From positions 71,534 through 135,533 of IMG/VR virus record IMGVR_UViG_2524614847_000004: a stretch of 64,000 bases of DNA, one strand, 5' to 3'. The DNA is from a virus. Its lineage: Duplodnaviria > Caudoviricetes. A program made the position numbers and the translations under genes. The notes under the pieces are model-generated. The model saw only the letters and a program-made list of their open reading frames with translations. It ran no database searches and was not told the origin of the DNA. Positions 3,181 through 62,188 of the stretch are shown here, in pieces; the first letter of the stretch is position 1, and each line of letters begins with the position of its first letter.

Positions 3181-3188
3181 GTGATACC

Positions 3189-4958: not shown

Positions 4959-6502
4959 TTATCATAGAAACAGACAAAAATAAAGTAACTTCAACTAGCA
5001 TTCAAGATCAAAAATTAAAAGACGAAAAAAGTTTGAATGATTTCTATAATGGTAAATCATCTTCTTTTGATTATTCCTCTTTAAAACGACTTGTTCTAGC
5101 TGAGTTGAGTTACAATAACTCAATTAAATATAATCGTATTTGCGGTTTTACAAGGAAGCAAATTCTTAACATGATTCAATCTCCTGAAAGATATGGAGAT
5201 TACATATTACGATTATCTCAATACATGATGTTGAAAAGCGGATACTATAAGAGATTAATTGACTACTTTGCAAATATGGGAATTGTAAATTGGACTGTTG
5301 ACACTGAAGTAGTTGATGCCAAATTTTTCAATGTAAGCGAAAAGACTCTGCGAAATAATTATATAAAATTTTGTAACCAGTGCAGTTTATTCAGATTAGA
5401 GACGAATATAACTTCAATCTTAAAAAAGATGTTCGTAGAAGACGTGTGTTATGGATTTTTAGAGGAATCAGATTTTGACACCTCTATATTTTTTATTGAT
5501 CCTAGATATTGTGAGATTACAAAAAATGTAAATGGCAATGTTTATCAGTTTGCAATAAATAGATCTTTGTTGACTGACAATTACATAAAATCTCTTCCTA
5601 AATCTCTTCAAGTTTTACTAGAAGAATCAACAATTAACCTCAATAATCTGGTACAGGTTCCATACGAAAACTCTATATGTTTGAAGTATAATAATGATGT
5701 TACATATCCTTATCCACCGTTCTTTAATCTGATTTCCGATATTTTATTAATAGATGATTATAAGGATTTGGCAAAAGCTAAAACCGAGTCAGATGCTTAT
5801 AAATTAGTTTATTTTAAAATACCAACTAATGATGATGGTAAAATTTCGATGGGTGATGAAATTGTAGTACCATTCGTTGAAATGACAAAAGATATTATTC
5901 CTGAAACTTGGGGCGTTGTACCATCTCCAATGGACTTGCAATTAGTTGAATCAAAGTCAACGGTGTCAGACGATACGAATAAAGTGCAAGAAGCTGTGGA
6001 TTCGTATTATGGAGAAGCGGGGGTATCAAAATCGTTAATTTCATCTGCGTCTAGTGGGTCTGAACTAAAATTATCAATAAAAGTTGATTCATCTGATATG
6101 TATAGGATTTATCGTATGATCGAAAATTGGATGGACTTACAGTTAAAGTTAAGAGGATTTATTTTTGAGGCATATCGTTTCGTTTATGATATCTTAGATA
6201 TTACCATATATGACTCTCAAGACGCTATAGACAAAGAATTGAAACTTGCTCAGGTATCTGTTCCAAATAAAATGAGACTGCTTGCAACTATGGGGATTAA
6301 TCCCTTAAAACTATTAGGAAATAGTGTGATTGAAAATACAATCTTTAAAGATGTATTTGAGGGTTGGAAGCCGTTACAGTCTTCGTTTACTCAAGGAGGA
6401 AGTGATAAACAAGGTAGGCCTCCCAAAGATGAAACTGAAATATCAGATGTAACGGATACTCAGCGTAACAATGATTCAAATAATACGGACAATCGTATAT
6501 AG
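4955..6502 (+). CDS. Portal protein (true start possibly ATA at 4964)
   Basis: About 515 aa directly after terL; C-terminal GRP motif typical of portals. Confidence 0.75.
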   Translation: MIIIETDKNKVTSTSIQDQKLKDEKSLNDFYNGKSSSFDYSSLKRLVLAELSYNNSIKYNRICGFTRKQILNMIQSPERYGDYILRLSQYMMLKSGYYKRLIDYFANMGIVNWTVDTEVVDAKFFNVSEKTLRNNYIKFCNQCSLFRLETNITSILKKMFVEDVCYGFLEESDFDTSIFFIDPRYCEITKNVNGNVYQFAINRSLLTDNYIKSLPKSLQVLLEESTINLNNLVQVPYENSICLKYNNDVTYPYPPFFNLISDILLIDDYKDLAKAKTESDAYKLVYFKIPTNDDGKISMGDEIVVPFVEMTKDIIPETWGVVPSPMDLQLVESKSTVSDDTNKVQEAVDSYYGEAGVSKSLISSASSGSELKLSIKVDSSDMYRIYRMIENWMDLQLKLRGFIFEAYRFVYDILDITIYDSQDAIDKELKLAQVSVPNKMRLLATMGINPLKLLGNSVIENTIFKDVFEGWKPLQSSFTQGGSDKQGRPPKDETEISDVTDTQRNNDSNNTDNRI

Positions 6503-6519
6503 TGAAGGCTGGTGAAACA

Positions 6520-6708
6520 TTGGGTGTTATTATTGTGGTTAATTATGACGTTGCAGAAGAACTAAGATTGTTAGGGTACAATTATTCAAAAATACATACT
6601 AGTAATTGTATATTATATCAATTCATAGAGTCTGAGAGTTTGCGAAAGGAACTGTTATCAAAATATGATAATGGTTCTTTTTTTGTGTCAAAAAATATTT
6701 GTTATTGA
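6520..6708 (+). CDS. Small hypothetical protein
   Basis: GGTGA SD then TTG; lies between portal and scaffold. Confidence 0.55.
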   Translation: MGVIIVVNYDVAEELRLLGYNYSKIHTSNCILYQFIESESLRKELLSKYDNGSFFVSKNICY

Positions 6709-6726
6709 AAGGGGTGAAAGTTTTTC

Positions 6727-8127
6727 TTGGATAAAAAGATAGTCAGATATGAAACAGAAATTAAGATCTTAGATTCGTCAATAAAAGTATTAAATCCACA
6801 GTTCAGCTTATGTGATGTTCTGGTCTGTTACCATGGAGATAATCGAAATTATACATCTTTACCAAAAAAGATTATTGAAGATAATCTATATTCAATATAC
6901 GGAGTTCCCATCATTGGTGAGTGGATTTATAAACTTGATGGAACAGATGAAAAAACATGGGGTTCTCATGGAGGAAGAATAATTCTTGATGATAATGGGA
7001 TTCACTTTGAGCAGACCACAAGGCCCTTTGGATTTGTAACAAAAGAAGCCGCAGATAATGCAACTTGGGTCACTATTACCGAAAAAGATGGTCATACAAA
7101 ACATGAGTATTTAAAACTATCTGGATGTATCTTATGGACAGATAGATATGAAGAGTCTAAAACAATTTTAGATGATAATTATGGTCAATCAATGGAAATT
7201 GAAATTCCAAAAGGTCATTATAGAAATGACAACTATTTTGAAGCAGAGAAAATCACATTCTCTGCTCTTTGTATTTTAGGAACTAATGTTGAGCCTTGTT
7301 TCGAATCTGCATGCATAGGTAGGCATTATAATTTGGATTCGTTCAAGATGGAGTACTCTCTTATGCTTGATGAATATAAAAAAATTAACGAAGAAAATAA
7401 AAATGAGGAGGTAAATTGTAAGATGAACTTTGACAAAATCAAAGATCTTATTTCAACTTACTCTTATGGAGAGAATGAAAGTCCCAAATATTCATTAATT
7501 GGTAATACAACAGAACATGACTTTACCGTTATTGATATGGAGGACGGATTCAAAATCTATAAGATTGAGTATACAGTTGACAATGAAGAAATTGTTGTCG
7601 ATTGGGAGTCAAAAGTTGAAATGAATTTTTCACTGATTGAAAAGGCTGGTGACATGTCTGATGTAAGCAAAGCTGTTGAGGTTATTGCAGATAAGATGTA
7701 TGAGATGAGAGCAGAAAATTTGACTGCTGATTTAAACTCTAAAATTGACGAAATGGCACAGGAATATTCAAATGTCACAAATGAATTGAACGCCGCTAAT
7801 GAAAAGATTAGGTCATATGAAAGTAAAGAGGCAAAAGTTAAAATGGATAACCATAAAGCAGAAGTTGAGGAAATCATCAAAAATTATTCTGCTAAGTTGG
7901 GCAGATTTCCTAAGTTCTTAATATATAAAGCGAAACTGAATCCTGAAACTATTTCTGTTGACAAATTAACAGAAGATTTAACCTTAATGGCTGGTGAAGC
8001 AATGATGAATGGAAGAAAGGATTTTTCTTATACTCCAAATGAAGTTGATGCCCCCAAAAAGAAATCATATTCAGACAATAGCGCAAATCGCTATGGCAAT
8101 TTACTTGACAAGTACAGAAACATGTAA
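6727..8127 (+). CDS. Prohead protease/scaffold protein
   Basis: QSMEI..FSALCILG..VEPCFESA N-terminal domain plus coiled-coil C-terminus; position before capsid genes. Confidence 0.7.
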   Translation: MDKKIVRYETEIKILDSSIKVLNPQFSLCDVLVCYHGDNRNYTSLPKKIIEDNLYSIYGVPIIGEWIYKLDGTDEKTWGSHGGRIILDDNGIHFEQTTRPFGFVTKEAADNATWVTITEKDGHTKHEYLKLSGCILWTDRYEESKTILDDNYGQSMEIEIPKGHYRNDNYFEAEKITFSALCILGTNVEPCFESACIGRHYNLDSFKMEYSLMLDEYKKINEENKNEEVNCKMNFDKIKDLISTYSYGENESPKYSLIGNTTEHDFTVIDMEDGFKIYKIEYTVDNEEIVVDWESKVEMNFSLIEKAGDMSDVSKAVEVIADKMYEMRAENLTADLNSKIDEMAQEYSNVTNELNAANEKIRSYESKEAKVKMDNHKAEVEEIIKNYSAKLGRFPKFLIYKAKLNPETISVDKLTEDLTLMAGEAMMNGRKDFSYTPNEVDAPKKKSYSDNSANRYGNLLDKYRNM

Positions 8128-8144
8128 AATAGGAGGATTTAAAA

Positions 8145-8711
8145 ATGGCATATAACGTAGTAGAGACAACGAATTTATATGGGAGCAAGGCTCTCTCATT
8201 TCAGGCAACAACCAACATAGAAAATGGTTTTTTAATTGCCAAAGGCGATCTTGTTACGGGAGAAACAGAAGTTTACACAGCGAAAGTACCTACTGCAACA
8301 GATGAAGTGTATCTAGTTGCTAATCCCGCTTGGAGTTATAACGATGATAGAGCAACTGATCAGAATGAGGAGAATTTTATTAATAAGGCGGGAATTGCTT
8401 TTAGAGGTCGCCAGTTAAAGAAAGACAATAAGTTTAAAGTGTATAGCTATGGAATCACCCCTATCGCTGAAGGGACACCGGTTGCAGAGGGACAGTTTAT
8501 TACGATTGACGGAACTACACATAAACCCAAAGCAGTTGCATCTGCTCCCGAAGGTGGCTTTTATGGAAAAGTAACTGCTGTTGATACAATTGGATTCCCT
8601 TATTGCGTTGGTTCTCTTGGAACTTCAACCACGCTTGGCGGAGAAAATATGGGATATACCGTAGACACCACAGTAACAAAAGTAACCATTGAAGTCGTAA
8701 AAAATGTTTAA
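8145..8711 (+). CDS. Head decoration/cement-like structural protein
   Basis: Beta-rich 188 aa protein between scaffold and major capsid. Confidence 0.55.
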   Translation: MAYNVVETTNLYGSKALSFQATTNIENGFLIAKGDLVTGETEVYTAKVPTATDEVYLVANPAWSYNDDRATDQNEENFINKAGIAFRGRQLKKDNKFKVYSYGITPIAEGTPVAEGQFITIDGTTHKPKAVASAPEGGFYGKVTAVDTIGFPYCVGSLGTSTTLGGENMGYTVDTTVTKVTIEVVKNV

Positions 8712-8727
8712 TTTGGAGGAAGCGTAA

Positions 8728-9744
8728 ATGAAGGGATACTTATTAGAATTAACAAACTTAATGAATGATTCTCTGTCTAACAGAGTTGCACTTTTTGATG
8801 TAAACGCAAGCAAATATACCGATCAGGCAATTAGAGAGGCGTTTTTTGAAATTCTAGGTGACGAAAAGCTCACATGGCAGGGTTGGAGAAATCATAAGAA
8901 CGAAATATTTACCGTAATGGAAACCGTTCTTACTACTAATCTCCCACTAGCTTGGGAAAATTCTACGTTTTACGATCAGTTTGTGGAAACAAAAAACGGC
9001 GCACTTGGAGATAAGAATGAATTCGTAGTAGAAGACAATTCTATTCTTGTTGCAAGTAGATTTGCCGGTAATTATTGGTCTACCGATCGCACGAAGTTAC
9101 AGGGTAAAAAGTCTTTTGGACTTGCAACAGAGTGGATTTTCTTGCACATCTATGATGAGCTTGAAAGATTCTTAAAGGGAACTACCACTCTTGCTGATAT
9201 GATTGGCAAGTTACAGAAAGGGTTCCAGAACGAAATTGACACAAGAATTTTTACTGCATTTAACGGCGCAGGAACATACTTACCAGCTAAATTTCAGGAA
9301 TCCGGTGCTTATGATAGATCTACTATGGCGGATCTGATTGAAAGAGTTCAGAAAGCCTCCCAGAAAAATGTTGTATTAGCTGGTACTCGTACTGCGCTTG
9401 CACAGATTGTTGAAGGTATGGATTCTAAGTTAATCTCAGATTCTCAGAAAGAGGAATTTGCAACAAAGGGTTGCATTTTAAGTCTTACAGGTCTTGGCGT
9501 TAGTGCAATCATGATTCCACAGGCGTTAGTTCGTGGCACGTATGATTTTAAGGTCGACAACAATGTAATTTACGTCCTTCCTGATTCTGAGAAACCTATC
9601 AAGTTATATTTTGAGGGAGACACCAGAGCAAGAGAAATTCAGCCGAATGAGTCTGAAGATATGACCATGGATACTCAGGTTCAAACAAAGCTGGGTTGCG
9701 CTACTGTATTCAGTAATCTCATTGGTAGATATCAGTTGGCATAA
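8728..9744 (+). CDS. Major capsid protein
   Basis: 338 aa, strong SD, expected position, followed by a terminator. Confidence 0.75.
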   Translation: MKGYLLELTNLMNDSLSNRVALFDVNASKYTDQAIREAFFEILGDEKLTWQGWRNHKNEIFTVMETVLTTNLPLAWENSTFYDQFVETKNGALGDKNEFVVEDNSILVASRFAGNYWSTDRTKLQGKKSFGLATEWIFLHIYDELERFLKGTTTLADMIGKLQKGFQNEIDTRIFTAFNGAGTYLPAKFQESGAYDRSTMADLIERVQKASQKNVVLAGTRTALAQIVEGMDSKLISDSQKEEFATKGCILSLTGLGVSAIMIPQALVRGTYDFKVDNNVIYVLPDSEKPIKLYFEGDTRAREIQPNESEDMTMDTQVQTKLGCATVFSNLIGRYQLA

Positions 9745-9758
9745 TTATAACACTTTTC

Positions 9759-9786
9759 GCAGCATCTTAATTGGTGCTGCTTTTTA
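9759..9786 (+). terminator. Intrinsic terminator after capsid gene
   Basis: gcagcatc-ttaatt-ggtgctgc followed by T6. Confidence 0.7.
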
Positions 9787-9799
9787 ACGAGGTAATAAT

Positions 9800-10003
9800 A
9801 TGGAAAAAGAAAAAACAAATCCATTTTTCCATTGTTACTCTTTTAAATTATGTTATTTCCTTAAATCACAAGGATTCAGCTATGTTTCCAAAGATAAAAA
9901 TAATAAGAATAATTTGACATTCTACAAATTTATTAAATCGAATGACTTAAACATAGCAATTGGTAAATGGAATGATTTAAAAGACAAATCTAAGGAGGTA
10001 TAA
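9800..10003 (+). CDS. DUF5659-like small protein
   Basis: F.CYS.KL..FL...G pattern. Confidence 0.5.
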   Translation: MEKEKTNPFFHCYSFKLCYFLKSQGFSYVSKDKNNKNNLTFYKFIKSNDLNIAIGKWNDLKDKSKEV

Positions 10004-10006
10004 AAT

Positions 10007-10726
10007 ATGGATTATAATTCAAAAGAATTAGATGAATTAAAAGAGATTGCTAAAACCAGAGGAATTAAGTGTGGAAATATTAGCAAAGATAAATTAATCG
10101 AAAAGCTAAAAGACAACGACGCAGCTAATTTCGCAAATACAACAGATGATGACTTGTCAGAAGAAAAAATAGAGCAGGTAAAAACAGAAAAGAAATCAAG
10201 CGGTTCTCTTCTATCAGCCATTTCAGAAACTATCGATGAATTAGACGAGTCAGTTGATGATGAAGATGATTATGATGACACGCTTGCACTTGATACTTCC
10301 ATTCCGGTTAAGTCCATAACATTTGGAGGATTGACATATAAATCACGTACAAGTGGAGCAGTTTACAGATGGAATCAAATCGGTGCGATTCAGTACATGA
10401 CTGTTACTGAGTTAAATGAAATGAACAATTATAAACCATCGTTCCTCAACAAACCGTTTGTGATTCTTATGGATGAACGAGCTATTAAGAAATTTAGGCT
10501 TACACCTGTATATGAAAATGTCGCTAAAGTGAACAATCTTCGCGCAGTTTTTAATTCTGATATGCAGACTATCGAAAAGGTGATTGATGATGCATTAAGA
10601 GTTAACATGCGAGACATTTTAATCAGCAAGGTTCGTCAGATGTATAAGACTAAAAAATTAGTAGATATAAATATCATTCGCCTTCTTGAAAAAAAGATGC
10701 AGTTCGATTTATCTGATTCAGAATAA
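10007..10726 (+). CDS. Hypothetical protein with N-terminal Rho-N/SAP-like motif
   Basis: ELKEIAKTRGIK...KDKLIEKL. Confidence 0.55.
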   Translation: MDYNSKELDELKEIAKTRGIKCGNISKDKLIEKLKDNDAANFANTTDDDLSEEKIEQVKTEKKSSGSLLSAISETIDELDESVDDEDDYDDTLALDTSIPVKSITFGGLTYKSRTSGAVYRWNQIGAIQYMTVTELNEMNNYKPSFLNKPFVILMDERAIKKFRLTPVYENVAKVNNLRAVFNSDMQTIEKVIDDALRVNMRDILISKVRQMYKTKKLVDINIIRLLEKKMQFDLSDSE

Positions 10727-10740
10727 TTTGAGGTGGACGA

Positions 10741-11184
10741 ATGGGGACTGCATATAAAGAATTAGCTGATTCCGTCTTTGACAAAATTAAGGATCTTGAT
10801 TTTATGGATATGGACGAAAATGTGGCTTATGATGTTGTAATAAGGTATATTCGTCCAGCGATAGTGAAATTTGAGAATTGTAAGCAAGACCTATCAGATA
10901 GAAATGATACACTAGAAGAATTTAATTTTTCACTAGACGACAATACTTTTGAACTTCTTGCTAATTATATGACAATTGAGTGGCTGACTTCTAATTATAT
11001 TCTTACATATCAGGCTTTAAAGGGAAGAATGAGTACATCGGATTTTCACAAAATAGATACAAAAGATATTCTTGGCAAAACCACTGAATTACGTAATTCT
11101 TTAAAAGCAGAAAACGATCAGTTGGCCATTAATAAATCATATCCAAATTCCAAACTATTTTCGATTGTAACGAAAAGAAAGTAG
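10741..11184 (+). CDS. Putative head-tail adaptor
   Basis: Size and position after capsid genes. Confidence 0.5.
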   Translation: MGTAYKELADSVFDKIKDLDFMDMDENVAYDVVIRYIRPAIVKFENCKQDLSDRNDTLEEFNFSLDDNTFELLANYMTIEWLTSNYILTYQALKGRMSTSDFHKIDTKDILGKTTELRNSLKAENDQLAINKSYPNSKLFSIVTKRK

Positions 11185-11192
11185 GTGGAATT

Positions 11193-12284
11193 ATGGGATT
11201 GGAATTAATGAAGGAACGAATTAAAAAGAGTGGGTTATCTGTCAGAGAAGAATTGATAAAAGACGCAAGACAATTATTGGAGAGTGAGAATCAAAACGAC
11301 TCATCTTATTGCCCCACTATGTATAAACTTGTGTTTGACAAAGACGCTACTATTGAAGAAAAAATTAATCCAAGGCTATATTATAAGAAGTATAGCTCAA
11401 GTGCAGGAAAAACTCAAAAAATACAAACCGTATATTCAGAGAAATTTGAAGTAGGCGATTGTTTTTACGATTCAAAGGATTCATCTTATTGGATATGCAC
11501 TGAGGCGTTTGATAATGATGATATATCATGGAACGGTAAACTTGCTTATTGTAACTACAAGCTTCATTGGCAAAATGAGTCTGGTGAAATAATATCTCGC
11601 TATGCTCGTATTCTTAATGCCTCAGCTTATAACAATGGAGAAAAGGAAAATAAAACTCTTACTCTTCAATCTAATCAGTTTATGGTTTATCTACCATATG
11701 ACAATGAAACCATGTTATTGGACGATAATAAGAGAATACATATGTCAAAAAACATTCGGAAGTGTAAGCCATATGAGATTACGAGGATTGATGACATATC
11801 CTATGATTTTACAGATAAGGGGCTGATTAATCTAATTTTTACTCAAGTTCAAGCCAGCCCAACTACTGATAAACTCGTTGATGATGGTACTGGCAATAAA
11901 GTATGGATATGTGACTACAATACCCCATCCTCTCCCACTGATCCAGGTGATGAAAATGGCAATCAAAGTCCAATTTTATTGCAAGCAACATTCACTTGCA
12001 AGGGAGATAAGATAATAAAGGCTGGCGGTAGTGCTAAAACTTTTTCTGTTAGTTTTTCAGGTGAAAACCAAGTGCCGGTTACTGATGTTGATTATATATG
12101 GTCAGTTTCTATCACCAAAGAGTTTAATAACCTATTGACCGTAGAAACACTGTCAAATGGGCAATGTAAGGTAAAACTTGGATATGATGACTTGGTTGTT
12201 GGCAATTATGTAAGATTATCCGTTGTAAACAGTGAAGGTACTGAGATTGGCTACGAATTAATTGAGATTGGAGGGAATCTGTAA
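11193..12284 (+). CDS. Putative head closure/neck protein with Ig-like C-terminus
   Basis: Position; beta-rich C-terminal domain. Confidence 0.45.
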   Translation: MGLELMKERIKKSGLSVREELIKDARQLLESENQNDSSYCPTMYKLVFDKDATIEEKINPRLYYKKYSSSAGKTQKIQTVYSEKFEVGDCFYDSKDSSYWICTEAFDNDDISWNGKLAYCNYKLHWQNESGEIISRYARILNASAYNNGEKENKTLTLQSNQFMVYLPYDNETMLLDDNKRIHMSKNIRKCKPYEITRIDDISYDFTDKGLINLIFTQVQASPTTDKLVDDGTGNKVWICDYNTPSSPTDPGDENGNQSPILLQATFTCKGDKIIKAGGSAKTFSVSFSGENQVPVTDVDYIWSVSITKEFNNLLTVETLSNGQCKVKLGYDDLVVGNYVRLSVVNSEGTEIGYELIEIGGNL

Positions 12285-19357: not shown

Positions 19358-19501
19358 TATTTGAGTTTTATATATTAATTTTTGTAATTAATGGTTGCTT
19401 TCTAACAACCGACTTTTGGCAAATTATGTGATATTATGTCATTAATAAATTTATTGCTCATGCAAATACTAGATGTACGACTAAATTGTAGAGGTGTTTG
19501 C

Positions 19502-19720
19502 ATGTTTATAAAATTACGTGACGTAAGAATAGAAAAAGGTATATCAATAAGAGAACTAGAGCAGAAATCGGGGGTTGATAGGTCGACAATCAGTAGGATT
19601 GAGAATGAACAAGCCATTCCTAGCGTATTAACGTTGTGTAAATTGGCATATGCTTTAAATGTGACATTAGATGACTTAGTAGAATATACGGAATATTGTG
19701 AAAAAGAAAAGGGGGAGTAA
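19502..19720 (+). CDS. XRE-family HTH regulator
   Basis: LRDVRIEKGISIRELEQKSGV.RSTISRIEN..PS..TL.KLA.AL; GAGGTG SD before ATG 19502. Confidence 0.85.
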   Translation: MFIKLRDVRIEKGISIRELEQKSGVDRSTISRIENEQAIPSVLTLCKLAYALNVTLDDLVEYTEYCEKEKGE

Positions 19721-19994
19721 TATGTCTGAGAAGATGTATTATAATGTGATTTGTGAGGAGATTGGAGTTACTGGCGGTAAAATTATTCATGTTGATGAGA
19801 ATAAAGGTACGATTCAAGAAGTTCATGATCTTGTAGATGAGAATATTGAAAAGTGGCCAAATGGGAAGTTTATCCAAGATTTTTTAAAGCTTTATTTTCT
19901 ATTTAAATACCGATTTGTTTTAGATTTTAGGCGCTTATGCTGTAACAGGTATGGGCGCTTTTTGTATGTAAAAATGAAAGGAAGTGATTTTCGT

Positions 19995-21014
19995 ATGAAG
20001 AAAATACCAGAAGTAACAAGCGAAGAATGGGGTAAAGTTAATGTATTTAACAGGTTTATTTATGACGATTTCTTTGCCAACAACATTGAACTATCAGACA
20101 AATCTATTAAGGCATATCGTAGTTCATTAAAAATTTGGTTCAGATGGGTTATGGAGAATTTAAGCAACAAACAACAGACAGAAATTAAGGGGTTGGACTT
20201 TAAGAGGTATCAGAACTGGCTAATAAGTCTTGGACACTCTTCTTCTGACATTTCAAATAAACGTGCTGCTGTTAGCAGTTTAAATAATTACATAATGGTA
20301 TATTACGAAAGCGATTTTCCTACATTTCGCAACTTCATCAATTCCTCAATAAAGAAACCAGAAAAGTCTTTTGTTAGAGAAAAGATTCCTCCAACAAAAG
20401 CTGAAATGGAAAAACTTATTTCTACATTAAAAGAAGGTAAGGTTAAAGACAAATATCAGAAAATTGCTTATTTAAAGTTCACATGGGAAACTGGTTGTCG
20501 CAGAGCCGAAACAATGCAAATTATGAAAGACATTATTAACTCTGAACCGATTATAAAAAAGAAATTGGTTAAGTTGGAAGATGGGGCTGAAGAAGAAAAA
20601 GAAATCAAATACTATCTTACCCCGAAAATCAGATGTAAGGGGCGTGGGAAAACCGGAAAAATTCGACGCTTGAAATTCTCTGATTATTCCTTGGAAGCAT
20701 TTAAAAAATGGTTGGAAGAACGAGGAGATGATGATTGCCCATATATGTTTATCACAAAATATAACGGTGGAATTAATCAGGTAAGCGAAACCACATTTAA
20801 TAATTGGTGTACTGATGTATTCTCTCCTATTATTGGTAGACGATTTCATCCGCATATTCTTAGGGAAGGACGAGCGACAAGTATAGTCGTTGAAGAAGGC
20901 AAGAATATCGAAGCAGCTCAAGCCTTGCTTGGACATGAATCGAGCCAAACCACACAGATCTACGTAATTAGAGATGATGAAGATGAGGATTCCGATGAGC
21001 TATTTATGGATTAA
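19995..21014 (+). CDS. Tyrosine recombinase (XerC/D-like) inside the structural module
   Basis: TGCRRAE, KGRG, HILR, LGH..TTQIY catalytic set; SD GAAAGGAAGTGA before ATG 19995. Confidence 0.9.
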   Translation: MKKIPEVTSEEWGKVNVFNRFIYDDFFANNIELSDKSIKAYRSSLKIWFRWVMENLSNKQQTEIKGLDFKRYQNWLISLGHSSSDISNKRAAVSSLNNYIMVYYESDFPTFRNFINSSIKKPEKSFVREKIPPTKAEMEKLISTLKEGKVKDKYQKIAYLKFTWETGCRRAETMQIMKDIINSEPIIKKKLVKLEDGAEEEKEIKYYLTPKIRCKGRGKTGKIRRLKFSDYSLEAFKKWLEERGDDDCPYMFITKYNGGINQVSETTFNNWCTDVFSPIIGRRFHPHILREGRATSIVVEEGKNIEAAQALLGHESSQTTQIYVIRDDEDEDSDELFMD

Positions 21015-21128: not shown

Positions 21129-23216
21129 ATGGATAATTTAATTCTCCAGCTTGTCACTAGGTTGGATTCTAGCAAAACGGCTGATGATGTAAAGAAAATA
21201 CAGGAACAGTTAAATGCTAAAGGTATAACCTTAAAACCCGTTCTTGACACTGCAACAAGTAAAAAGGAAATTCAGAACCTAGCCAAGCAATTACAATCGA
21301 TAATGTCGTCAGTTGACCCGAAGTTTGGTGAGATAGGTGTTAAAGAATATACGTCTGCCATTAATGCTACTATTTCTGCCTCAAAGAAGGCTACTGCTGA
21401 ACAGGACAGATTTGTCAATTCAATGGCACGAGGACGGGAACAATCAGAATTATTACGTTCTGCAGAAGAAAAACGTCAGCAACTGGCGCAAAGTAATGCG
21501 ATAAACAAGAATCTTGAAGCCGAATACATTGAACGTCAGAAAATCTCACAGAAAATTGATGAGCAAGCTAATAAAATAAGAAATTTGCAATCAAGTGGGA
21601 ACGTAGATTTAAATTTTGATAAAGTTAAAACATCAATAAATAATCTTGATAAGATTGGATTGGCAACAGAATCATTAAAAAATGATTTTAAGCAGCTAAG
21701 TGTTCTATATAAAGGTATTGATAGTTCAACTCCGACAAAGCTTATAACCACATACTCTGCCTTTGATTCTCAGTTAAAGAAGGTTAATAATTCAATTGCT
21801 ACACAGAAATTAGGATTATCAGAAGTAAAACAGCAAGTTTCACAAGTAGATAAAATTACTTTTGCTAATCAGATACAAGCGTGGCGTAGAGTTAACTCAG
21901 CAGCCGAGAAAGAATTTGGTGGTACGCTTGATGAATTACTCATCAAACTGAAAGAAATCGATAATAAATCAGATTTCAGTAATCTACAAAAGAAATTTCG
22001 AGGTGTAAAGGCTGAAGCTGACGCTTTAGGGGTTACTGGTAAAAGTATAGGTGACACATTCGCATCAAGTGCACGTAAATTTTCAGAATGGATTGTTTCT
22101 GCTGGCGCTGTAATGACTGTGGTTCAGTCTGTGAAACAGATGGTTTCTAACGTTATAATATTAGACTCAGCAATGACCAATCTTTATAAGGTTACAGATG
22201 AGACAGATAGCAAGTACAATCAGTTTCTGATAAGCGCTAATAAAAACGCACAGGAGTTAGGCAGGTCTGTATCTAGTCTCGTTGAACAAACTGCAACATG
22301 GGCCAAGCTTGGATTTAATATTGACCAAGCAGAACAATTAGCAAAAATTTCTTCTATTTACGCTAACGTGGGCGAAGTTGATGATAAGACTGCAATATCC
22401 GACCTTGTTACGGCAATGAAAAGTTTTAACATCGAAAGTTCAAAAAGTATCACAATTGTAGACTCGCTTAACAAACTTGGAAACGAGTTTGCGACAGATG
22501 CAGGTTCGCTCGGTGAAGGATTAAAAAATGCTGCCTCTGCACTCGCTCTTGGTGGAATGGATATTAACAAATCACTAGCACTTTTAACTGGTGGATCTGA
22601 AATCACTCAAAATGCTGGAGAATTAGGCAACGCTTTAAAGGTCGGTCAAATGCGTGTAATGGGCATGAAAGGCGCTTTAGAAGAACTTGGCGAAGAAGCA
22701 GAAGGTCTTGAATCAGTTAGTAAAATACAAACTCATATTCTTAATCTGACAAAAGGCCAGGTTAATATTATGAACGACGCAGATCCATCGAAATTCAAAG
22801 ATTATTACGAAATTCTTGAAGGTGTTTCTAAGGTATTTGATTCATTAGATCAGACGAAACGTGCCGATCTTTTAGAAACACTTTTCGGGAAACAGCGCGG
22901 CAATCAAGGTGCGGCTGTAATTCAGGCATTTCAGTCTGGACAAGTACAAAAAGCTCTCGATGCATCGATCAATTCGGCAGGTAGCGCATATGCTGAACAG
23001 GAAAAATGGCTTGAATCAATAGAGGCGAAGACGCAGCAGTTTATTGCATCGTTTCAGTCTTTATCGAGTGCCATAGTGGATTCTGATGGGCTAAAACTGC
23101 TTGTAGATTCTGGAACATCTTTAAATAACATTTTAACTGAATTAATTCGAAACTTTGGCATTTTGCCAACGCTTGTATCTGGTGCAGGTATTGCATCATT
23201 CGTAAAAAACTTCGCT
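21129..23216 (+). CDS. Tape measure protein, exon 1 (TP901-type core)
   Basis: Helical Ala/Ser/Gln-rich sequence with LDSAMTNLYKVTDET core; TAG at 23217 is the first three intron bases. Confidence 0.88.
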
Positions 23217-23709
23217 TAGCTCTGAAATAAGAGTTACACTTAAATCTTTCCGAGGGATTTAGTTGGGCTATCTAGGGGGAGGAAATACCATAATGGCGGT
23301 ATATACAATTCCTAGAGACGAAAGTTTTAAAATAAAAAGAGGATTAATTGCTTGAAAGTGTAACGCTCACTACTCTTCTATTTTAGAAGAAGCCGAGAAA
23401 TAAGGCAAATAAGTCAAACGGTTTATACACCGGAGTGAGATTTCTAGGGATAAAAAATAATTCCCGACAGAAGTACAATCACCAACGAAGCAGCTAACCC
23501 TATCTACGCTAAGTCGTGGCATATAATCCGATGGTAGCAATTGCGAAAGCAGTGTCGGGATAAAGTCATAAAAGATAGGGAATGTTCAACGAGCACCATT
23601 CCTCACAGTATGCAAAAGCCTGATTTTGTGTGCTGTTAATGCATGTTCTAAAGTATACGAAGTATCAAACTTCAATGTTATTCAATGTAAGATATCAAAA
23701 CATTTACAC

Positions 23710-23743
23710 TTGTCTGGAAATTTCTTCCTCTCTATGATATAAT
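23710..23743 (+). promoter_or_regulatory. Sigma-A-like promoter for cargo gene 1
   Basis: TTGTCT-N17-TATGAT with an overlapping TGnTATAAT. Confidence 0.55.
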
Positions 23744-23774
23744 AATTTTAAAAAGAGATACAGGAGGGAATTGT

Positions 23775-24404
23775 ATGAAAAGGTTATTAGTTTTATTAAT
23801 GACAGCTACTATTGCTATTTGCAGCACATTTGTTTCTTTTGCAGGAGAATGGAAACAGAACGATAAAGGTTGGTGGTATCAGAACGACGACGGAAGTTAT
23901 GTAACATCTTCATGGAAGGAAATTGATGGGAAACAATATTATTTTGGATGGCATGGTTATATGTTGCATGATACGACTACACCAGATGGGTACTATGTTG
24001 GATCAGATGGGGCGTGGATCCCAGACGGAGAAATCTTGAATTCTGAGGCGGTGAATCCTTTGGGTGATAAGGATTTAGCAATTCAGACATTAGCAAATTT
24101 AATGATTACATTAAAAGACCCCAATTCCCTAGAGGTAAACAAAATATATTGTCAAACAATCGTTGGTGGAGCGGGTGCGATATTGAGGCAGGTTGTTATT
24201 AGATACTCGGCTACAAATACTTATGGTGGAAGAGTTGCAGATTATTATTCTGCATGGGCAAGTCCAAAAGATGGAAGTTTGGTATTAGATAGTGGTTTTA
24301 GGAAGGTTACACAGGAAATCTTAAATTCTGCGTTTGATAAAACCGAGTTAAACATTGATGAAATCTTACCTGCGGCACAACAGTTGGCTAACAGTTGGTA
24401 TTAA
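23775..24404 (+). CDS. Intron cargo 1: secreted cell-wall-binding-repeat protein
   Basis: Signal peptide ..VSFA|GEW, WWYQNDDGSY and TPDGYYVGSDGAW repeats, C-terminal LKDPxS..Y.ATN.YGG domain. Confidence 0.85.
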   Translation: MKRLLVLLMTATIAICSTFVSFAGEWKQNDKGWWYQNDDGSYVTSSWKEIDGKQYYFGWHGYMLHDTTTPDGYYVGSDGAWIPDGEILNSEAVNPLGDKDLAIQTLANLMITLKDPNSLEVNKIYCQTIVGGAGAILRQVVIRYSATNTYGGRVADYYSAWASPKDGSLVLDSGFRKVTQEILNSAFDKTELNIDEILPAAQQLANSWY

Positions 24405-24418
24405 TATTAAGTGCAGTT

Positions 24419-24449
24419 TAAAGAGTCTGAACATATCAGACTCTTTTTA
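24419..24449. terminator. Probably bidirectional intrinsic terminator inside the intron
   Basis: aaagagtctga-acata-tcagactcttttt between two convergent genes. Confidence 0.75.
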
Positions 24450-24575
24450 TGTGTGATAATTTTTGTTCATTATATATATCACAGCCATACACTGATATCC
24501 ACGCTTGTTATAATACGAAAAAGATACCAGTAATCCTCCAAGTTGGCTTGAATTACTTCATAATGCTTAATTATT

Positions 24576-25037
24576 TCACCATTTTGCTCCACAATTCTTA
24601 CAGTGCATTGTGTTCCTAATATTACTACTAAATAATCCGAATGCCAATCCACCAACGGCCTTCTTGGGAAGAGATATTTTCTCTATGTTCGGGCTTCCAC
24701 ATGTGGGACACTTGGGGATATTTTGCTGTATTGCCTCGCTATTGCTGTTAAATGTTGGAGGAACCTGTTTTGTCTCGCGCATTATTTTATATAATTGGTG
24801 TGCTCCATTGAAGTCTAAAGCACATCTTTCTTTTAGTTTTTTAATTAACACAACAGGGGTTTCAGTTGATGTAGCCTCTAATAATTCCTTCGTTAAATCA
24901 AATCTTGTTCCGTTGATTTCACTTATATTTTTGTCAGTTAAATCGATATTTAGTGGATAACCACAAAAAATGCACTTCTCGGCTTCACTAGATATATCTT
25001 TATTACATTCAGGACATTTTATTAACATATTATCCAA
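24576..25037 (-). CDS. Intron cargo 2: double zinc-ribbon protein (likely start ATG 25028)
   Basis: CPEC..CIFCG and CPTCG..CKNCG motifs, hydrophobic GGLAFGLF segment, SD AAGGGG. Confidence 0.8.
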   Translation of the reverse strand: MDNMLIKCPECNKDISSEAEKCIFCGYPLNIDLTDKNISEINGTRFDLTKELLEATSTETPVVLIKKLKERCALDFNGAHQLYKIMRETKQVPPTFNSNSEAIQQNIPKCPTCGSPNIEKISLPKKAVGGLAFGLFSSNIRNTMHCKNCGAKW

Positions 25038-25089
25038 TCCCCTTTTTTGTTTATATTATCATACATATAATCTCATATCAATAGTATCG

Positions 25090-28000
25090 CAACTTAAAGA
25101 CCTCGGAAATCTTTATGCTTTTTTTGATGAGATAAATAAATTGGGCAGTATAGATAATATGTCAAACGTAATGCTTGACAAATTATCAGATTCATTTGTG
25201 GGGTTAAGTGACGCTCAAAAACTAGCAAGAATATCTTCATCAAATCTTTCAAATGAAATGAAACAACAAGTGGCTGGTATGGTTGTAGCGAAGTCTTCCA
25301 CCACCGCCCTCTCCGCTTCTCAAGCCACTGCAACCGCAACCACAACAGGATTTGGCACTGCATTAAAGGGTCTCTGGGCAACCATGCTTGCAAATCCATT
25401 AATTCTGGTGGGTGCCGCTATTACCGCTGGACTGACTGCATGGAATATGTACAAACATTCAGTAGATGAAATGAGGAAATCCACATCTGAAGCCGCATCC
25501 GTATTCAGTGATACTTCCTCTTCTATTGAAGAATATTCAGATAAATACAAAGTATTACATGATGAACTAACTAATGCAAACACCACAGAAGAACGTCAAC
25601 ATGAAATAAAGAGCGATCTTCTCTCTTTACAGAAAGAATTAAATGATAAATATGGAGAAGAATATGGCAAGCTAAATCTCGTTACCGATGCATATAAAGA
25701 TCAGACAGAAGCTATTCTGGCTATGAACAAAGCAGCGGCACAGAAGTTTTTGAATGAGAATAGAGAAGGAATTGAAGATGCCAAGACCCAAATGACTTCT
25801 AAGAAGACATATATGGCTGCAATGGACATTAGTATGTATTCTGAATCTGGTAGCAGCATTCTTGATTTAGCTAAACAGATGGGACTTGATGTTGATGCAA
25901 ATGAATCAACTGGTACTTTTACCGTTAGAATCAAAGCGAATCCTACAGAAGCATACGATTCCATAACAGACTTCATGAATCAAGTGACAGCATTACAAGA
26001 AGACTTTGGGAACGACGACTATGATATTGGGTCGGTGCTTGGGATATCAAGTACCTCGCTAAATCATGCAAAAGATAAAATTGACGAATTTGGTGTTAAG
26101 TACAATTCTGCATTAGAAGCTGAAATAACTATAAATGATAAACTCTCGCGGAGTTTTGAAGAAGTCAAAGGTGCAGTACAAAAGTATAATGACGCATTAG
26201 CTTCCGGTGATGAGACTAAAATTCTATCGGCAAGAGATAATTTAAATAAAGTTAAAAATTCAATTGACCTTACCAGTACAGATTGGAAAGATTATGCGTC
26301 TGTTGTTACAGATGTGTTTGATCAGGCTGATACCGACTTATACGATTTTGAAGGTTCATTAAAGTCAAATAAAGATGGATTAATGAATTTTGCAAAAACA
26401 TTACGTGGAATATCTAAAGAAGATATTCTTGCTATAAGCGATGCCGGGGATAATGAAAACTTCGAGAAACTAAGAGAGGCGGCCGATGAATATGAATTAA
26501 GTGCAGAAGATGTCATTGCAGTTCTTGAAAGATTGAAAATTGTTCAAGGTGATGTTGGCAAATTTGGCGAAGCGGCATTCACTCCTCTTTCCAAACAAGA
26601 AGTAATCTCAAACATCAACTCTCTCTCCGAAGGTTTTGAATCCATTGATAAAATCATGAAGAGTGTATCCGACAAAAACAATCCGTTTGACTATGCTCTG
26701 CTTGATGATGGTAAGTTTACAAAGATATTCAGCACCCTAAATGATGGTGGTGAAGCTTACACAAACTTCATCGAAAAGGTTTCGTCATCACCCAAGGATC
26801 TAAATGCTACTCAAAGTGCATTTGACGAATTGGTTACTACATGGATTGATGGTTCTGGTGTATTAAACGGACTCACTGAGGATAATGCTATTCTCGCTAC
26901 TACTATGCTCCAAAATATGGGTATTGCTAATGCAGAAGAAGTAGTAATGTCACGACTTTCGGCAGCACAGGAACACCTTGCAGCGCAAAAAGCTTATACA
27001 GCAGAAGTAAGTAATGACCTTGCTAATGCTACAGCAAGTGCAATCCCAGGAATTATAGAAGAGGCAACTCAAAGTGACATAGCCAAAGTAGCACTGGCCG
27101 GACTGGTATTAGAAAAAGAGTTTTTTAATGGGAATGCACTGGATACTAGTGGCGATATTGAAAATATCCTCTCTCTTGTTGGAGTAATTGGTACCGCGAG
27201 TAAGGCGTTACAAGCTTTAAATGCGGTAAAATCCGGTAAAGTTGGGGCTGGAGGTAAAGCTAATTATGATTTTATTGTAAGTGCCGCAGAAAAAGAATAT
27301 GAAGATGCAATAAAGGCTGCTTCCGAATATAAAGGCAAGGGTTCAAGTACCAACGTATCGTATACAGGTGGTCCAAAAACAAATAAACCATCTGGCTCTA
27401 AAAAAGATAAAAAAGAAACAAAAAAACCTATTGACTGGATTGCTCGCGGCACTAAAGTACTACAAGATGAGTATGCAAAATTAGAAGAATTAGCCAATAA
27501 AGACACAATTGCATACCTTGGACTGACACAAGAAGAATTTGATAAGGCTAAATCAATTTTCGATAATGGTCTTGGCAATACAGCGAAGGGTTTATCTCAG
27601 CTACAAAGTTATGCGGATAAAGCGGGATTGAGTTTAGGTGAATTATACACAATGATTCAATCTGGTGCTCCTAGTGCTTCAAAAGAAAATGCGCTGCAAA
27701 GTATGCTAGAAATGCAAACTGAAACATTGCTTCCGCAATACCAACGAGAAGTCGAGGCATATTCAAAAGCATATGCAGACGCTTTAAAGGATATTCCATC
27801 TGAATATAAGGCCAAAATTGAGAATGGTGGAGTAGATATTGAATCTTTACCTAGTGATTTAGCTGAAAAAGTTCAAACAGCAATTGATGCCAATGAAAAG
27901 TTGAAAAAATCGGAAGGACAGCTAGAAGAAGGAAGAGAAAAACAGATTCAAACGATTCAAGATTTACATGAGAATAGAATTGCCGCAACCGATATAGAAA

Positions 28001-28584
28001 ATGAAAAATTGGAACAGTCCAATAAGATAATAAAGTCTCAAATAGAATTGATGGAAGCACGTGGAGAGATTGTCGATGCAGATTTCTACAAACGGCAAAT
28101 AAGAAATAATAAGGGTTTGATTTCTGGAAACCAAAAAAATATTGCTGAATGGGAATCTGAAATGGCTGATCTTCGGAAGGCGAACGTTTCCACTAGCTCA
28201 AAAGAATATAAAGAATTACAAGCAAAAGTAAGGGCTGCAAAGAATGAAATACAGGGGATGAAACTTGAACAGGAAGAATACAATAACAAGTTACTTCAAA
28301 TGCCAATTGAAAATGCCTCTATTCTTGTTTCAATGTATCAGGATATTGGGACTGCTATTCGGGGCTGGGGTGATGAGGTTGTAGCTTCTGGAGGGAAATT
28401 AGATGCCGATTATTATCAGAGTTTGATTTTCAATGGAGCATCTGTGATTGGACAGCTTCAGAAACAAAGTTCTCTGATAAAAGATGTTATGGATAATTAC
28501 GAAGTTGGCTCGAATAACTGGAATGAATTATACAAGCAACTACAAAAACTCCGAGATGTCAAGTGCAATTCAGAACATGCGTAA
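25090..28584 (+). CDS. Tape measure protein, exon 2 (frameshifted near 28545)
   Basis: GFGTALKGLWATMLANPLILVGAAI plus long coiled coils; no SD or start of its own; joins exon 1 in frame. Confidence 0.85.
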   Translation, partial: QLKDLGNLYAFFDEINKLGSIDNMSNVMLDKLSDSFVGLSDAQKLARISSSNLSNEMKQQVAGMVVAKSSTTALSASQATATATTTGFGTALKGLWATMLANPLILVGAAITAGLTAWNMYKHSVDEMRKSTSEAASVFSDTSSSIEEYSDKYKVLHDELTNANTTEERQHEIKSDLLSLQKELNDKYGEEYGKLNLVTDAYKDQTEAILAMNKAAAQKFLNENREGIEDAKTQMTSKKTYMAAMDISMYSESGSSILDLAKQMGLDVDANESTGTFTVRIKANPTEAYDSITDFMNQVTALQEDFGNDDYDIGSVLGISSTSLNHAKDKIDEFGVKYNSALEAEITINDKLSRSFEEVKGAVQKYNDALASGDETKILSARDNLNKVKNSIDLTSTDWKDYASVVTDVFDQADTDLYDFEGSLKSNKDGLMNFAKTLRGISKEDILAISDAGDNENFEKLREAADEYELSAEDVIAVLERLKIVQGDVGKFGEAAFTPLSKQEVISNINSLSEGFESIDKIMKSVSDKNNPFDYALLDDGKFTKIFSTLNDGGEAYTNFIEKVSSSPKDLNATQSAFDELVTTWIDGSGVLNGLTEDNAILATTMLQNMGIANAEEVVMSRLSAAQEHLAAQKAYTAEVSNDLANATASAIPGIIEEATQSDIAKVALAGLVLEKEFFNGNALDTSGDIENILSLVGVIGTASKALQALNAVKSGKVGAGGKANYDFIVSAAEKEYEDAIKAASEYKGKGSSTNVSYTGGPKTNKPSGSKKDKKETKKPIDWIARGTKVLQDEYAKLEELANKDTIAYLGLTQEEFDKAKSIFDNGLGNTAKGLSQLQSYADKAGLSLGELYTMIQSGAPSASKENALQSMLEMQTETLLPQYQREVEAYSKAYADALKDIPSEYKAKIENGGVDIESLPSDLAEKVQTAIDANEKLKKSEGQLEEGREKQIQTIQDLHENRIAATDIENEKLEQSNKIIKSQIELMEARGEIVDADFYKRQIRNNKGLISGNQKNIAEWESEMADLRKANVSTSSKEYKELQAKVRAAKNEIQGMKLEQEEYNNKLLQMPIENASILVSMYQDIGTAIRGWGDEVVASGGKLDADYYQSLIFNGASVIGQLQKQSSLIKDVMDNYEVGSNNWNELYKQLQKLRDVKCNSEHA

Positions 28585-30136
28585 ATTCAATGAAGAATTA
28601 CTGAAAATGCCTCTTGATAAAATTGGCAACTTCTCTTCTGAATTACAAAAAGTTGCTGATGGACTAAGCAAAGTTCAGAGTGAACAAGATCAGGTTATAT
28701 CTGCCGTAACAAACGCAATTCAGAAACAGATTGATGCTATAAATGACCAGAAGAACGCATACCAGGAAGCCAATGAAGCACAAAAGAAGGGTTTAAAGGA
28801 TAAACTTGACTTACTTCAAAAGCAGAACATCCAGTTAAAGCGACAGACTGACTATGAACAGGCATTATATGACTTACAGAAAACAAACCAACAAGCAACC
28901 GAAGCTGTAATTCGTGATGGGGAAAAAGTTTATGAGGTGAATGCAGATAAGCAAAGAGAGGCTCTTGAAAAAGTTCAAGATGCAAAATTCGCTCTTGAAA
29001 CAGGAAAAATTCAGGATGAAATTGATGCACTCGATGAAGCACTTGAAAAACAGAACGAATTATATGATTCACAGATTAAGAACCTTGAAACTATAGCAGA
29101 TCGATGGAAGCAAATTGCAGAGAACATCAAGATTGCACAGGACGAAGCCATTGCAACAGATAGCCTCGGTAATGGTTGGAAAGACAAAGTTCTCTCTGGC
29201 AACGATGAAGCTCTATTCAATACATTCTCTGGAATGTACGCCAACACCGCCGAACAGCTAAAAAAATATCAAGATCAGATAGACTCCACTAACAACATTC
29301 AGTCCTTATTAGAGGATTATATAGCTTCCTATAAGGCAGGTGAAATCACCTATACTGAAGCTGTAAATGGTATTAACGGTCTTCTATCTCAGCTTAATCA
29401 GAAAATGTCTGCCACAGATAATTTAAAGAATATCTTTGATTATCTTGGAACTGTAAATGACACAGCAGCTAACGCAGACGCGATTCTGACGGGTATCCAG
29501 AGTGGATTGAAAGATACTGCCACTGAGTTGTTAAAGTCCCTAGAACAGTACAATAAGAACTCTGGAATGATATCTGAATATACGTCTAGTTGGCAACAAC
29601 TTACTAATAACGTTAAGGACATGCTCGATGTGCTAAAACAAGTCAGGGACAATCAAAAAGATAGTTATGACCGCGATGATGACGACGATGATGAACCGTA
29701 TGATAAATCCAGAGGTAAAGGTTGGGGAACTGGTGATGTAAACAATGGCCCTGGTGTATATGCTGATGGCATCAAAAATGGGCTTGTTGGAAAATCTACA
29801 GATTCTGAGCGAGAAAAGATGCTCAAACATCTTGCTACAAATAATTTGAAGCCGGGAGAAGTTCCAATACTTGCTCATGAAGGAGAGGCTATCTTTAATG
29901 ATGAACAACAGAATAATCTTTTAAAGAACTTAGCGTCTGCTAATGGTTTTAAGCCTAATATTCCTGATTATAGCAGTTTTCTAAATCAAATTACAGTAAG
30001 AGAATCGACTCCAAAGCAAGAATTCAAGTTTGGTAATATCAATATTCAAGAATGTAATAATGCCAATGATTTGGCTAAAGAAATACTAAACGGCGGACTG
30101 ACACGAGCAGTTATCCAAGGTTTAGGAAAAAGATGA
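28547..30136 (+). CDS. Tape measure C-terminal part (+1 frame)
   Basis: FNEELLKMP echoes upstream YNNKLLQMP; C-terminal AHEGEAIFN..FGNINI typical of tape measure ends. Confidence 0.75.
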   Translation, partial: NSEMSSAIQNMRKFNEELLKMPLDKIGNFSSELQKVADGLSKVQSEQDQVISAVTNAIQKQIDAINDQKNAYQEANEAQKKGLKDKLDLLQKQNIQLKRQTDYEQALYDLQKTNQQATEAVIRDGEKVYEVNADKQREALEKVQDAKFALETGKIQDEIDALDEALEKQNELYDSQIKNLETIADRWKQIAENIKIAQDEAIATDSLGNGWKDKVLSGNDEALFNTFSGMYANTAEQLKKYQDQIDSTNNIQSLLEDYIASYKAGEITYTEAVNGINGLLSQLNQKMSATDNLKNIFDYLGTVNDTAANADAILTGIQSGLKDTATELLKSLEQYNKNSGMISEYTSSWQQLTNNVKDMLDVLKQVRDNQKDSYDRDDDDDDEPYDKSRGKGWGTGDVNNGPGVYADGIKNGLVGKSTDSEREKMLKHLATNNLKPGEVPILAHEGEAIFNDEQQNNLLKNLASANGFKPNIPDYSSFLNQITVRESTPKQEFKFGNINIQECNNANDLAKEILNGGLTRAVIQGLGKR

Positions 30137-62114: not shown

Positions 62115-62188
62115 TGGCTAATAGCTCAGTCGGTTAGAGCGCCTGTCTGTTAAACAGGATGTCGTAGGTTCAATTCCTACTTAGCCAG
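62115..62188 (+). tRNA. tRNA-Asn (GTT), CCA not encoded
   Basis: Acceptor tggctaa/ttagcca, D-arm gctc/gagc, anticodon cctgt-ctGTTaa-acagg, T-arm gtagg-ttcaatt-cctac. Confidence 0.93.

Follow-up and report, generated by a model that had tools for sequence, protein, structure and literature searches.

What is the 1873 nt insert that parts the tape measure gene of a provirus at positions 23217-25089, and how might that gene still yield a single protein? The locus lies on the plus strand of what is here called the window, the whole 64,000 nt stretch analysed, which forms part of a 135.5 kb provirus record (IMG/VR record IMGVR_UViG_2524614847_000004). From the features described below, the insert is very probably a group I intron that carries variable accessory cargo ahead of its 3′ splice site and that would be removed from the tape measure transcript by splicing.

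The position of the interruption is clear from the reading frames. Exon 1 (21129-23216, plus strand) comprises 696 codons ending AAAAACTTCGCT (KNFA), with U23216 as its last base; the corresponding open reading frame (ORF), 21129-23219, terminates at a TAG stop, GCT(23216) lying 3 nt earlier. It was identified as tape measure sequence through matches to Pfam PhageMin_Tail (2.3e-21) and to phrog_4211 (6.7e-74, profile positions 554-949 of 2625). Exon 2 (25090-28584, plus strand, beginning QLKDLGN...) is 64% identical to the 1604-amino-acid exon 2 ORF of a related locus, L010, and the extended guide discussed below is complementary to the first 26 nt of this exon in the window. The tape measure protein resumes at CAA(25090), and the join GCT|CAA gives KNFA-QLKDLG in frame, exactly as an earlier interpretation made from the letters of this DNA (hereafter the sequence-only reading) had described; the insert lies in phase 0 of the gene. 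Further, in the intron-less alleles L002 and L003 the frame continues uninterrupted across the site (FVKNFE-QLKN and FIKNFD-NLKN, respectively). To judge from these alignments, the predicted junction KNFA|QLKD is a true interruption of the tape measure ORF.

The relatives used for comparison were obtained in two ways. A protein-guided search of IMG/VR yielded 10 related loci, and pattern scans added three viral loci and nine from Lachnospiraceae, Clostridium and Eubacterium genome bins (L034, a re-fetch of the record already holding L007, is not an extra sequence). The resulting core alignment comprises 16 different sequences, which fall into four sub-families (A-D). Since the pattern scanned against the genome bins matched the D family only, families A-C were missed in those contigs; BLAST with the window's core did not reach the D family. 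Among the relatives a 5′ part of ~440-505 nt is conserved at 65-99% identity and the remainder of the insert differs, in agreement with the expectation that homologous tape measure loci would combine a conserved core with variable cargo. For example, exon 1 of L010 and of L011 stops at the codon where that of the window stops, and is followed by 438 nt that are 98.6% and 95.4% identical, respectively, to positions 23220-23657 of the window; unrelated DNA lies beyond, and exon 2 restarts exactly at CAACTTAAAG. In L005/L006 and L008/L009 the core is found at the same place and is 69% identical to that of the window. In metagenome contigs, as in L010 and L011, similarity is lost at 23658-23668; it comes back at 25089 in one metagenome run. 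Among sequencing runs, the whole stretch was present in one isolate only, three metagenome runs containing exon 1 and the core followed by divergent sequence. These limits, with similarity resuming at 25089/25090, define a variable cargo interval at 23659-25088. Annotated phages gave no match to the core or to exon 2, and those matching exon 1 did so solely through tape measure genes of less than 60% identity.

The first ~440 nt of the insert are predicted to fold as a group I core, P1-P8, containing the P3/P7 pseudoknot. Helix mapping on the window, combined with covariation across the 16 homologues, places the ribozyme core at 23217-23649 on the plus strand. Its helices are P1 (23211-16/23266-71), P1a (23218-23/23230-35), P1b (23241-46/23256-61), P2 (23272-78/23309-15), P3 (23339-43/23600-04, GAGGA/UCCUC), P4 (23348-53/23488-93), those of the P5 domain (23366-23474), P6 (23498-505/23573-80), P7 (23591-95/23644-48, GAGCA/UGUUC, with G23591-C23648 as the guanosine-binding G-C pair) and P8 (23605-17/23624-36). 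Of the core pairings that the sequence-only reading had listed, U23216-G23266, P3, P7 and P8 are all present and are kept in the 16 homologues. P3 and P7 cross one another, as in the group I pseudoknot, and the order of elements from P3 to P8 is canonical. The motif GTTCAACGA, 5′ of P7, is invariant across the alignment and presumably corresponds to the classical R element. R pairs with S to form P7 (PMC3984707). The exact R-P3 pattern was found in two of 401 genomes sampled from the family of the genome G006, G006 itself being counted. Just 4 nt lie between P7 and P3′, leaving no P7.1/P7.2, and the ribozyme is therefore not of the IA2 type present in IStrons.

Covariation was assessed quantitatively over 101 pairs in 17 helices of the 16 sequences, the control being the same count with the pairing partner slid by 1-3 columns. 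In the proposed structure 76.4% of cells are paired, compared with 39.0-45.2% when slid; 52 pairs are altered on both sides, compared with 13-24; and the covariation score is 0.296, compared with 0.051-0.115. For four of the five measures none of 500 shuffles reached the observed value, while the fifth, 'further pair types', was reached by 303 of the 500. At the level of individual helices, support is strongest for those of the core: all seven pairs of P2 covary (93.8% paired across the 16 homologues), as do two of six in P4 (89.6%), six of eight in P6 (95.3%, from eight sequences), two of five in P7 (90.0%) and seven of 13 in P8 (89.0%); P3 shows no variation and is 100% paired in the 16 homologues. 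RNAalifold, to which the structure was not supplied, recovered P1a, P2, P3 and P8, and the single-sequence fold of the window has a minimum free energy z-score of -3.63.

The splice sites are marked by pairing of both exons with a single internal guide (23240-23268, plus strand). Its last three bases, GGC (23266-68), pair with the exon 1 codon GCU to form P1, and 23240-23265 pair with exon 2. The last base of exon 1 is U, paired with a guide G (U23216-G23266 in the window), in 16 of 16 sequences, and position -2 of P1, A-U in nine and C-G in seven, covaries with the exon codon GCT/GAT. At the other end, a G (25089 in the window, the terminal intron G or omega-G, directly after which the 3′ splice site is placed) precedes exon 2 in all 11 loci with a readable 3′ junction, and in each of these 11 a guide-exon 2 duplex of 17-25 bp, an extended P10, can be formed. 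In the window this duplex pairs 23240-23265 with 25090-25115 through 21 bp, with an RNAduplex energy of -22.3 kcal/mol. The cognate duplexes of 10 of the 11 loci range from -18.1 to -28.9 kcal/mol, the remaining locus being the AU-rich L025 at -9.2 kcal/mol; the guide of L005 makes 20 contiguous pairs. By comparison, the window's guide gives only -3.9 to -10.7 kcal/mol with the exons of other sub-families, and the exons of B, C, L027 and L028 resemble each other and cross-pair. Exon 2 and guide change together, from CAACU/AGUUG in the window to CAUCUU/AAGGUG in L005, CAAAUU/AAUUUG in L007, CAAUUA/UAAUUG in L025 and UCGCUU/AAGCGG in L033; in L024 the pairing contains a single mismatch. In hairpin P1b the guide bases supply the loop together with the 3′ strand, and the P1b fold and the guide-exon 2 duplex are therefore mutually exclusive.

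No conserved 3′-terminal intron sequence was found, the window, L010 and L011 having in common only an AT-rich antisense-promoter stretch, so that the space between the core and the terminal G appears free to vary. The ORF-less intron of L025 has its first 505-509 nt in common with the cargo-bearing relatives and nothing beyond. Candidate dead proximal copies of the 3′ splice site were also considered and are attributable to chance: the alignment score of 15 obtained in the window was matched by 279 of 300 shuffles, and the scores at the other nine loci were equalled by 11 to 256 of 300.

Cargo was compared at 12 loci whose junctions are both known or, with the help of another locus on the same record, could be placed. 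The length of the intron varies from 673 nt, in L025, which has no ORF, to ~5.7 kb, the others spanning 1.2-5.7 kb; the stretch from core to 3′ splice site accordingly extends from 165 nt in L025 to ~5 kb with up to six genes. The ORF-bearing introns (11 of the 12) hold one to six genes on either strand. Their content differs from locus to locus. In L010 there are a PBECR3 nuclease domain, a helix-turn-helix (HTH) protein, a Bro-N/KilAC antirepressor and two skipping-rope RNAs, the latter in tandem at 2835-2913 and 2942-3021 of that locus (Rfam RF02924, 77.2 and 59.8 bits). L011 carries a PemK-type toxin (1.1e-15), L005 a LexA-like repressor and a 582-amino-acid GmrSD_N protein (PADLOC NsnA, 1.3e-28), L007 a 696-amino-acid HD protein with a weak dGTPase-like motif (8.1e-7), and L027 a lipoprotein-like ORF. 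A core profile run with nhmmer on 80 viral loci, picked for a homologue of the zinc-ribbon gene described below, revealed eight more, diverged cores. Five of these loci (L071 and L094-L097) belong to near-identical phages, in which the core lies 2770, 3299, 4113, 4188 and 4965 nt from where the zinc-ribbon match begins; their cargo includes Bro-N, Rha, PemK (1.9e-7 in L094), DUF2513 and DUF3800, and that of a sixth locus, L081, DUF3800 and Spo0A_C. As in a hotspot, then, flanks are conserved and gene content differs among related phages, the five near-identical ones included.

Within the window the cargo consists of two convergent genes. Cargo gene 1 (23775-24404, plus strand) encodes 209 amino acids with a signal peptide and a choline-binding repeat (Choline_bind_2, 4.6e-10), matches phrog_7854 at residues 11-90 and has a C-terminal half without a known family; its Atlas neighbours are choline-binding proteins with scores of at most 0.85, which serve as a lead only. 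Its product is predicted to be a secreted cell-wall-binding protein. Cargo gene 2 (24576-25028, minus strand), antisense to the tape measure gene, encodes 150 amino acids with zinc ribbons at both the N- and the C-terminus (Zn_Ribbon_1, 2.4e-6); its ATG is at 25028 and an in-frame TTG lies at 25037. Between the two genes is a terminator-like hairpin (24420-24446, plus strand) of 11 bp followed by a T run, and a promoter scan gave promoter-like sites for gene 1 at 23710-23743 (plus strand) and for gene 2 at 25081-25053 (minus strand). PADLOC gave no match for either gene. As the sequence-only reading had noted, the insert lacks a recognisable homing endonuclease or transposase: neither of its two genes matched such a family in Pfam, PHROG, NCBIfam or PADLOC. 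The same was true at Pfam E<=0.01 of all 37 cargo proteins, two from the window and 35 from relatives, when LAGLIDADG, GIY-YIG, HNH, His-Cys and PD-(D/E)XK endonucleases and insertion sequence (IS) transposases were considered; the closest approach to transposase families was in weak matches to transposase-type zinc-ribbon domains.

A mechanism may be proposed on this basis. The 5′ splice site would be fixed by the short P1, in which exon GCU meets GGC with the U23216.G23266 pair, and the 3′ splice site, 1.44 kb beyond the core, by G25089 together with the 21-bp P10. Late transcription would read through the cargo and its internal terminator; the guide would then quit hairpin P1b and pair with exon 2, and splicing would produce one tape measure mRNA of 1860-codon-plus, joining ...AACTTCGCT to CAACTTAAA.... 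The cargo would be expressed on its own signals, probably in the lysogen. Recombination between core and exon 2 would account for the exchange of cassettes. What the comparison demonstrates is the anatomy, the covariation and the variation in cargo; splicing, when the cargo is expressed and any benefit from it we infer. The pattern of variation suggests that the intron may serve as a splice-out 'safe harbour' for accessory genes. More tentatively, and at somewhat less than even probability, the introns of Lachnospiraceae-type phages could together form an endonuclease-less tape measure family in which accessory and defence cassettes dock, are exchanged and are removed again by splicing, the ~20-bp guide replacing 3′-terminal structure and any amount of DNA, promoters, terminators and antisense genes included, being tolerated within an essential structural gene. 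Were this true, the long guide could allow the intron to spread by reverse splicing, or exons from separate transcripts to be joined.

Several observations weigh against a functional intron at this site. With regard to the core, the covariance-model search that the sequence-only reading had suggested as a check was negative: Rfam gave no match to Intron_gpI in the window at the gathering threshold, none to its group I models within 22900-25400 at E<=10 and none at gathering in six related loci. We take these misses, obtained without a known phage intron as positive control, to reflect probable insensitivity of the model. The RNAalifold structure joins the 5′ strand of P4 to a different segment containing GCA, several peripheral helices are paired in only 33-52% of cells across the sub-families, and the D family, which makes up eight of the 16 sequences and does not include that of the window, is without a standard pair at the P7 G-C column; P7 of that family (alignment columns 443/500) may be drawn differently, or its introns may be impaired. 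With regard to transcription, the terminator-like hairpin within the intron has the same sense as the tape measure pre-mRNA, so that read-through is needed. While the two convergent genes and the terminator claimed by the sequence-only reading are indeed present, the promoters that it assigned to them are less secure, since such sites are as frequent in shuffled sequence (9 vs 9.0). The sole RNA run available comprises two contigs, both within exon 2, the junction lying outside their coverage. Finally, the reading frame of the tape measure gene is broken near 28541-28547, within a run of A residues (region 28536-28584), and goes on in another frame at 28484-30136, a distal part of 550 amino acids that matches phrog_4211 at positions 2437-2610. 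The break might come from a frameshift mutation, from a programmed shift or from an error in sequencing; the prophage may therefore be defective, or a base call wrong.

These last features are those expected if the insert were a relic, that is, a once-working intron in a cryptic prophage, now splicing inefficiently because of its cargo, internal terminator and antisense transcription, and leaving the tape measure gene dead. The terminator, the frame break, the CheckV completeness of 78% for the record and the lack of spliced RNA in a run that covers exon 2 only would all fit. Yet the core helices of the window, the U.G pair, the terminal G and the 21-bp guide are all intact, and the covariation of guide and exon in cargo-bearing relatives, down to ~65% identity, speaks for selection on splicing while cargo is in place. 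L010 and L011, moreover, combine cargo with a single, intact exon 2 ORF of ~1600 amino acids in which there is no frame break. A relic is considered unlikely.

The zinc-ribbon gene raises a different alternative, namely that its product serves the mobility or maintenance of the intron, as a homing protein of a new kind, in what would be a conventional mobile intron with passengers. Of 12 such genes aligned, 11 lie antisense and adjoin the 3′ splice site of this intron, the twelfth coming from L004, where there is no core; all 12 share a C-terminal module of ~45 amino acids, CPxC...CxxC, and have variable N-termini. The gene also stands beside the eight further diverged cores detected with nhmmer, and that of L011 shows a weak match to a transposase zinc-ribbon domain (PF12760, 5.6e-5). 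However, the family comprises 448 proteins at E<=0.001, whose sole name is 'zinc-ribbon domain-containing protein', and 72 of the 80 viral loci with a homologue are without this intron core, so that the family is not tied to the intron. Conversely, the gene is absent from L025 and from the record of L009. The idea that the protein is a nuclease was rejected, as it matched no nuclease family in Pfam, PHROG, NCBIfam or PADLOC and its model (mean predicted local distance difference test score, pLDDT, 74.5) has no fold match in the PDB at E<=0.001; an Atlas search returned zinc-ribbon clusters only. The gene is provisionally treated here as a passenger that recurs often, not as one serving mobility, and we consider the conventional mobile intron improbable.

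Might the exons instead be joined in trans? Transcription would then end at the cargo terminators, and exon 2 would be transcribed apart and joined through its ~20-bp guide. The terminator within the intron, the 17-25 bp guide in all 11 loci and the absence of conserved 3′-terminal intron structure are each compatible with such a scheme, but no promoter from which exon 2 could be transcribed was identified, the sole nearby promoter-like site being opposite in direction, and read-through by late transcription is simpler, making trans-splicing very unlikely. Least probable is that the gene is simply split and unspliced, with two proteins, a 440 nt non-coding element of another kind and ordinary morons: Rfam does not recognise a group I intron and an ATG precedes exon 2 in L010, L025, L027, L028 and L033, but no Shine-Dalgarno sequence or conserved start for exon 2 was found in the window or any locus read (in keeping with the sequence-only reading, to which a separately started exon 2 would have been contrary), the window codon at the junction is TCG and no start codon, the intron-less alleles are continuous, P1 and P10 covary with both exons, and the P3/P7 topology fits a group I intron.

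Several further features were seen in the window and in its relatives. Directly upstream of the tape measure start, 19436-21014 holds a tyrosine-type integrase (phrog_1, 1.8e-37) and an HTH regulator; there are no tail chaperone genes between this pair and the tape measure start. A tRNA gene occupies 62115-62188 (Rfam, 74.7 bits). In one Lachnospiraceae genome bin three intron copies (L026, L029 and L032) are found on three contigs. The L028 locus (reverse strand, oriented 2641-6813) has its tape measure pieces permuted around the intron, the order being a 98-amino-acid exon 1, an exon 2 at profile positions 913-1170 and then an ORF at positions 597-948. In L004, which was excluded from the cargo counts as having no core of this intron, 6918-11967 contains, between residues ~663 and ~777 of the tape measure protein, an AbiD gene (PADLOC, 9.9e-51) and its zinc-ribbon gene. 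Lastly, insertions of 1.3-1.8 kb are present at other exon 1 codons in L011 (1719-3311), L008 (6459-7747) and L007 (6669-8453), each containing one ORF of 345-432 amino acids. Those of L008 and L007 have DUF4379, DUF2726 or DUF723 and that of L011 a weak DUF5889 match only. The three insertions are probably introns in their own right that carry endonuclease-like genes; Rfam gave no match in any of them.

Prophage accessory and defence genes are thought to sit intergenically, at a few permissive sites. If the present element splices, an essential virion coding sequence can also be an accessory-gene site, rendered harmless at the RNA level, and the intron would be a natural case of 3′ splice-site choice by a long guide across kilobases, with a bearing on the tolerance of group I introns for large inserts and on the design of trans-splicing ribozymes. 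There is also a practical consequence: gene callers will label such tape measure genes broken and Rfam does not flag the intron, so that the phages may be misjudged defective. What is new is the variable cargo and the long guide, tape measure genes with group I introns having been described before. In the literature searched, with most subscription journals and supplements outside its scope, no phage intron with a variable set of moron or defence-like passengers was found, nor a natural P10 of ~20 bp, long P10 not having been searched by name.

Among known systems, the intron of T4 nrdD (sunY) has its core complete at the 5′ end and its 3′ splice site past an ORF, which encodes a homing endonuclease; a conserved 3′-terminal domain aids splice-site finding. 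The present element resembles it in the 5′ catalytic core and the remote 3′ splice site beyond ORFs, but here finding of that site appears to be left to the long exon-pairing guide. In Bacillus cereus-group prophages, group I introns occur at three tape measure gene sites, and in some of them the endonuclease gene is incomplete or missing (Tourasse and Kolsto 2008, PMC2504315). These too are of self-splicing type, in a prophage tape measure gene, with P1/P10 adapted to the site; they have IA1/IA2 ribozymes, and the section of that paper on prophage introns reports no multi-gene cargo. By contrast, the intron described here has its P7 separated from P3′ by just 4 nt, contains unrelated genes over kilobases and uses a P10 of ~20 bp. 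Genes for proteins and for RNAs can occur inside group I introns, which reach ~20 kb, as a 2014 survey notes (PMC4227781). IStrons, in which a 5′ ribozyme is followed by an IS passenger (PMC3984707), are alike in that foreign DNA precedes the 3′ splice site and there is no homing endonuclease (CdISt1 and BcISt1; Tourasse et al. 2014, PMC4227781). By definition, however, an IStron joins an IA2 ribozyme to an IS200/605 or IS607 element; the ribozyme has P7.1/P7.2 and P9.0-P9.2, and a passenger of IS200/605 type moves the whole unit; here no transposase was found, the ribozyme is of another class, and passengers change at one fixed gene site. The P2-like prophage hotspots (Rousset et al. 2022, PMC9122126) likewise combine conserved flanks with variable gene sets, defence-like genes included. 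Those hotspots are intergenic, whereas the slot described here lies within structural coding sequence and would be harmless only by virtue of RNA splicing.

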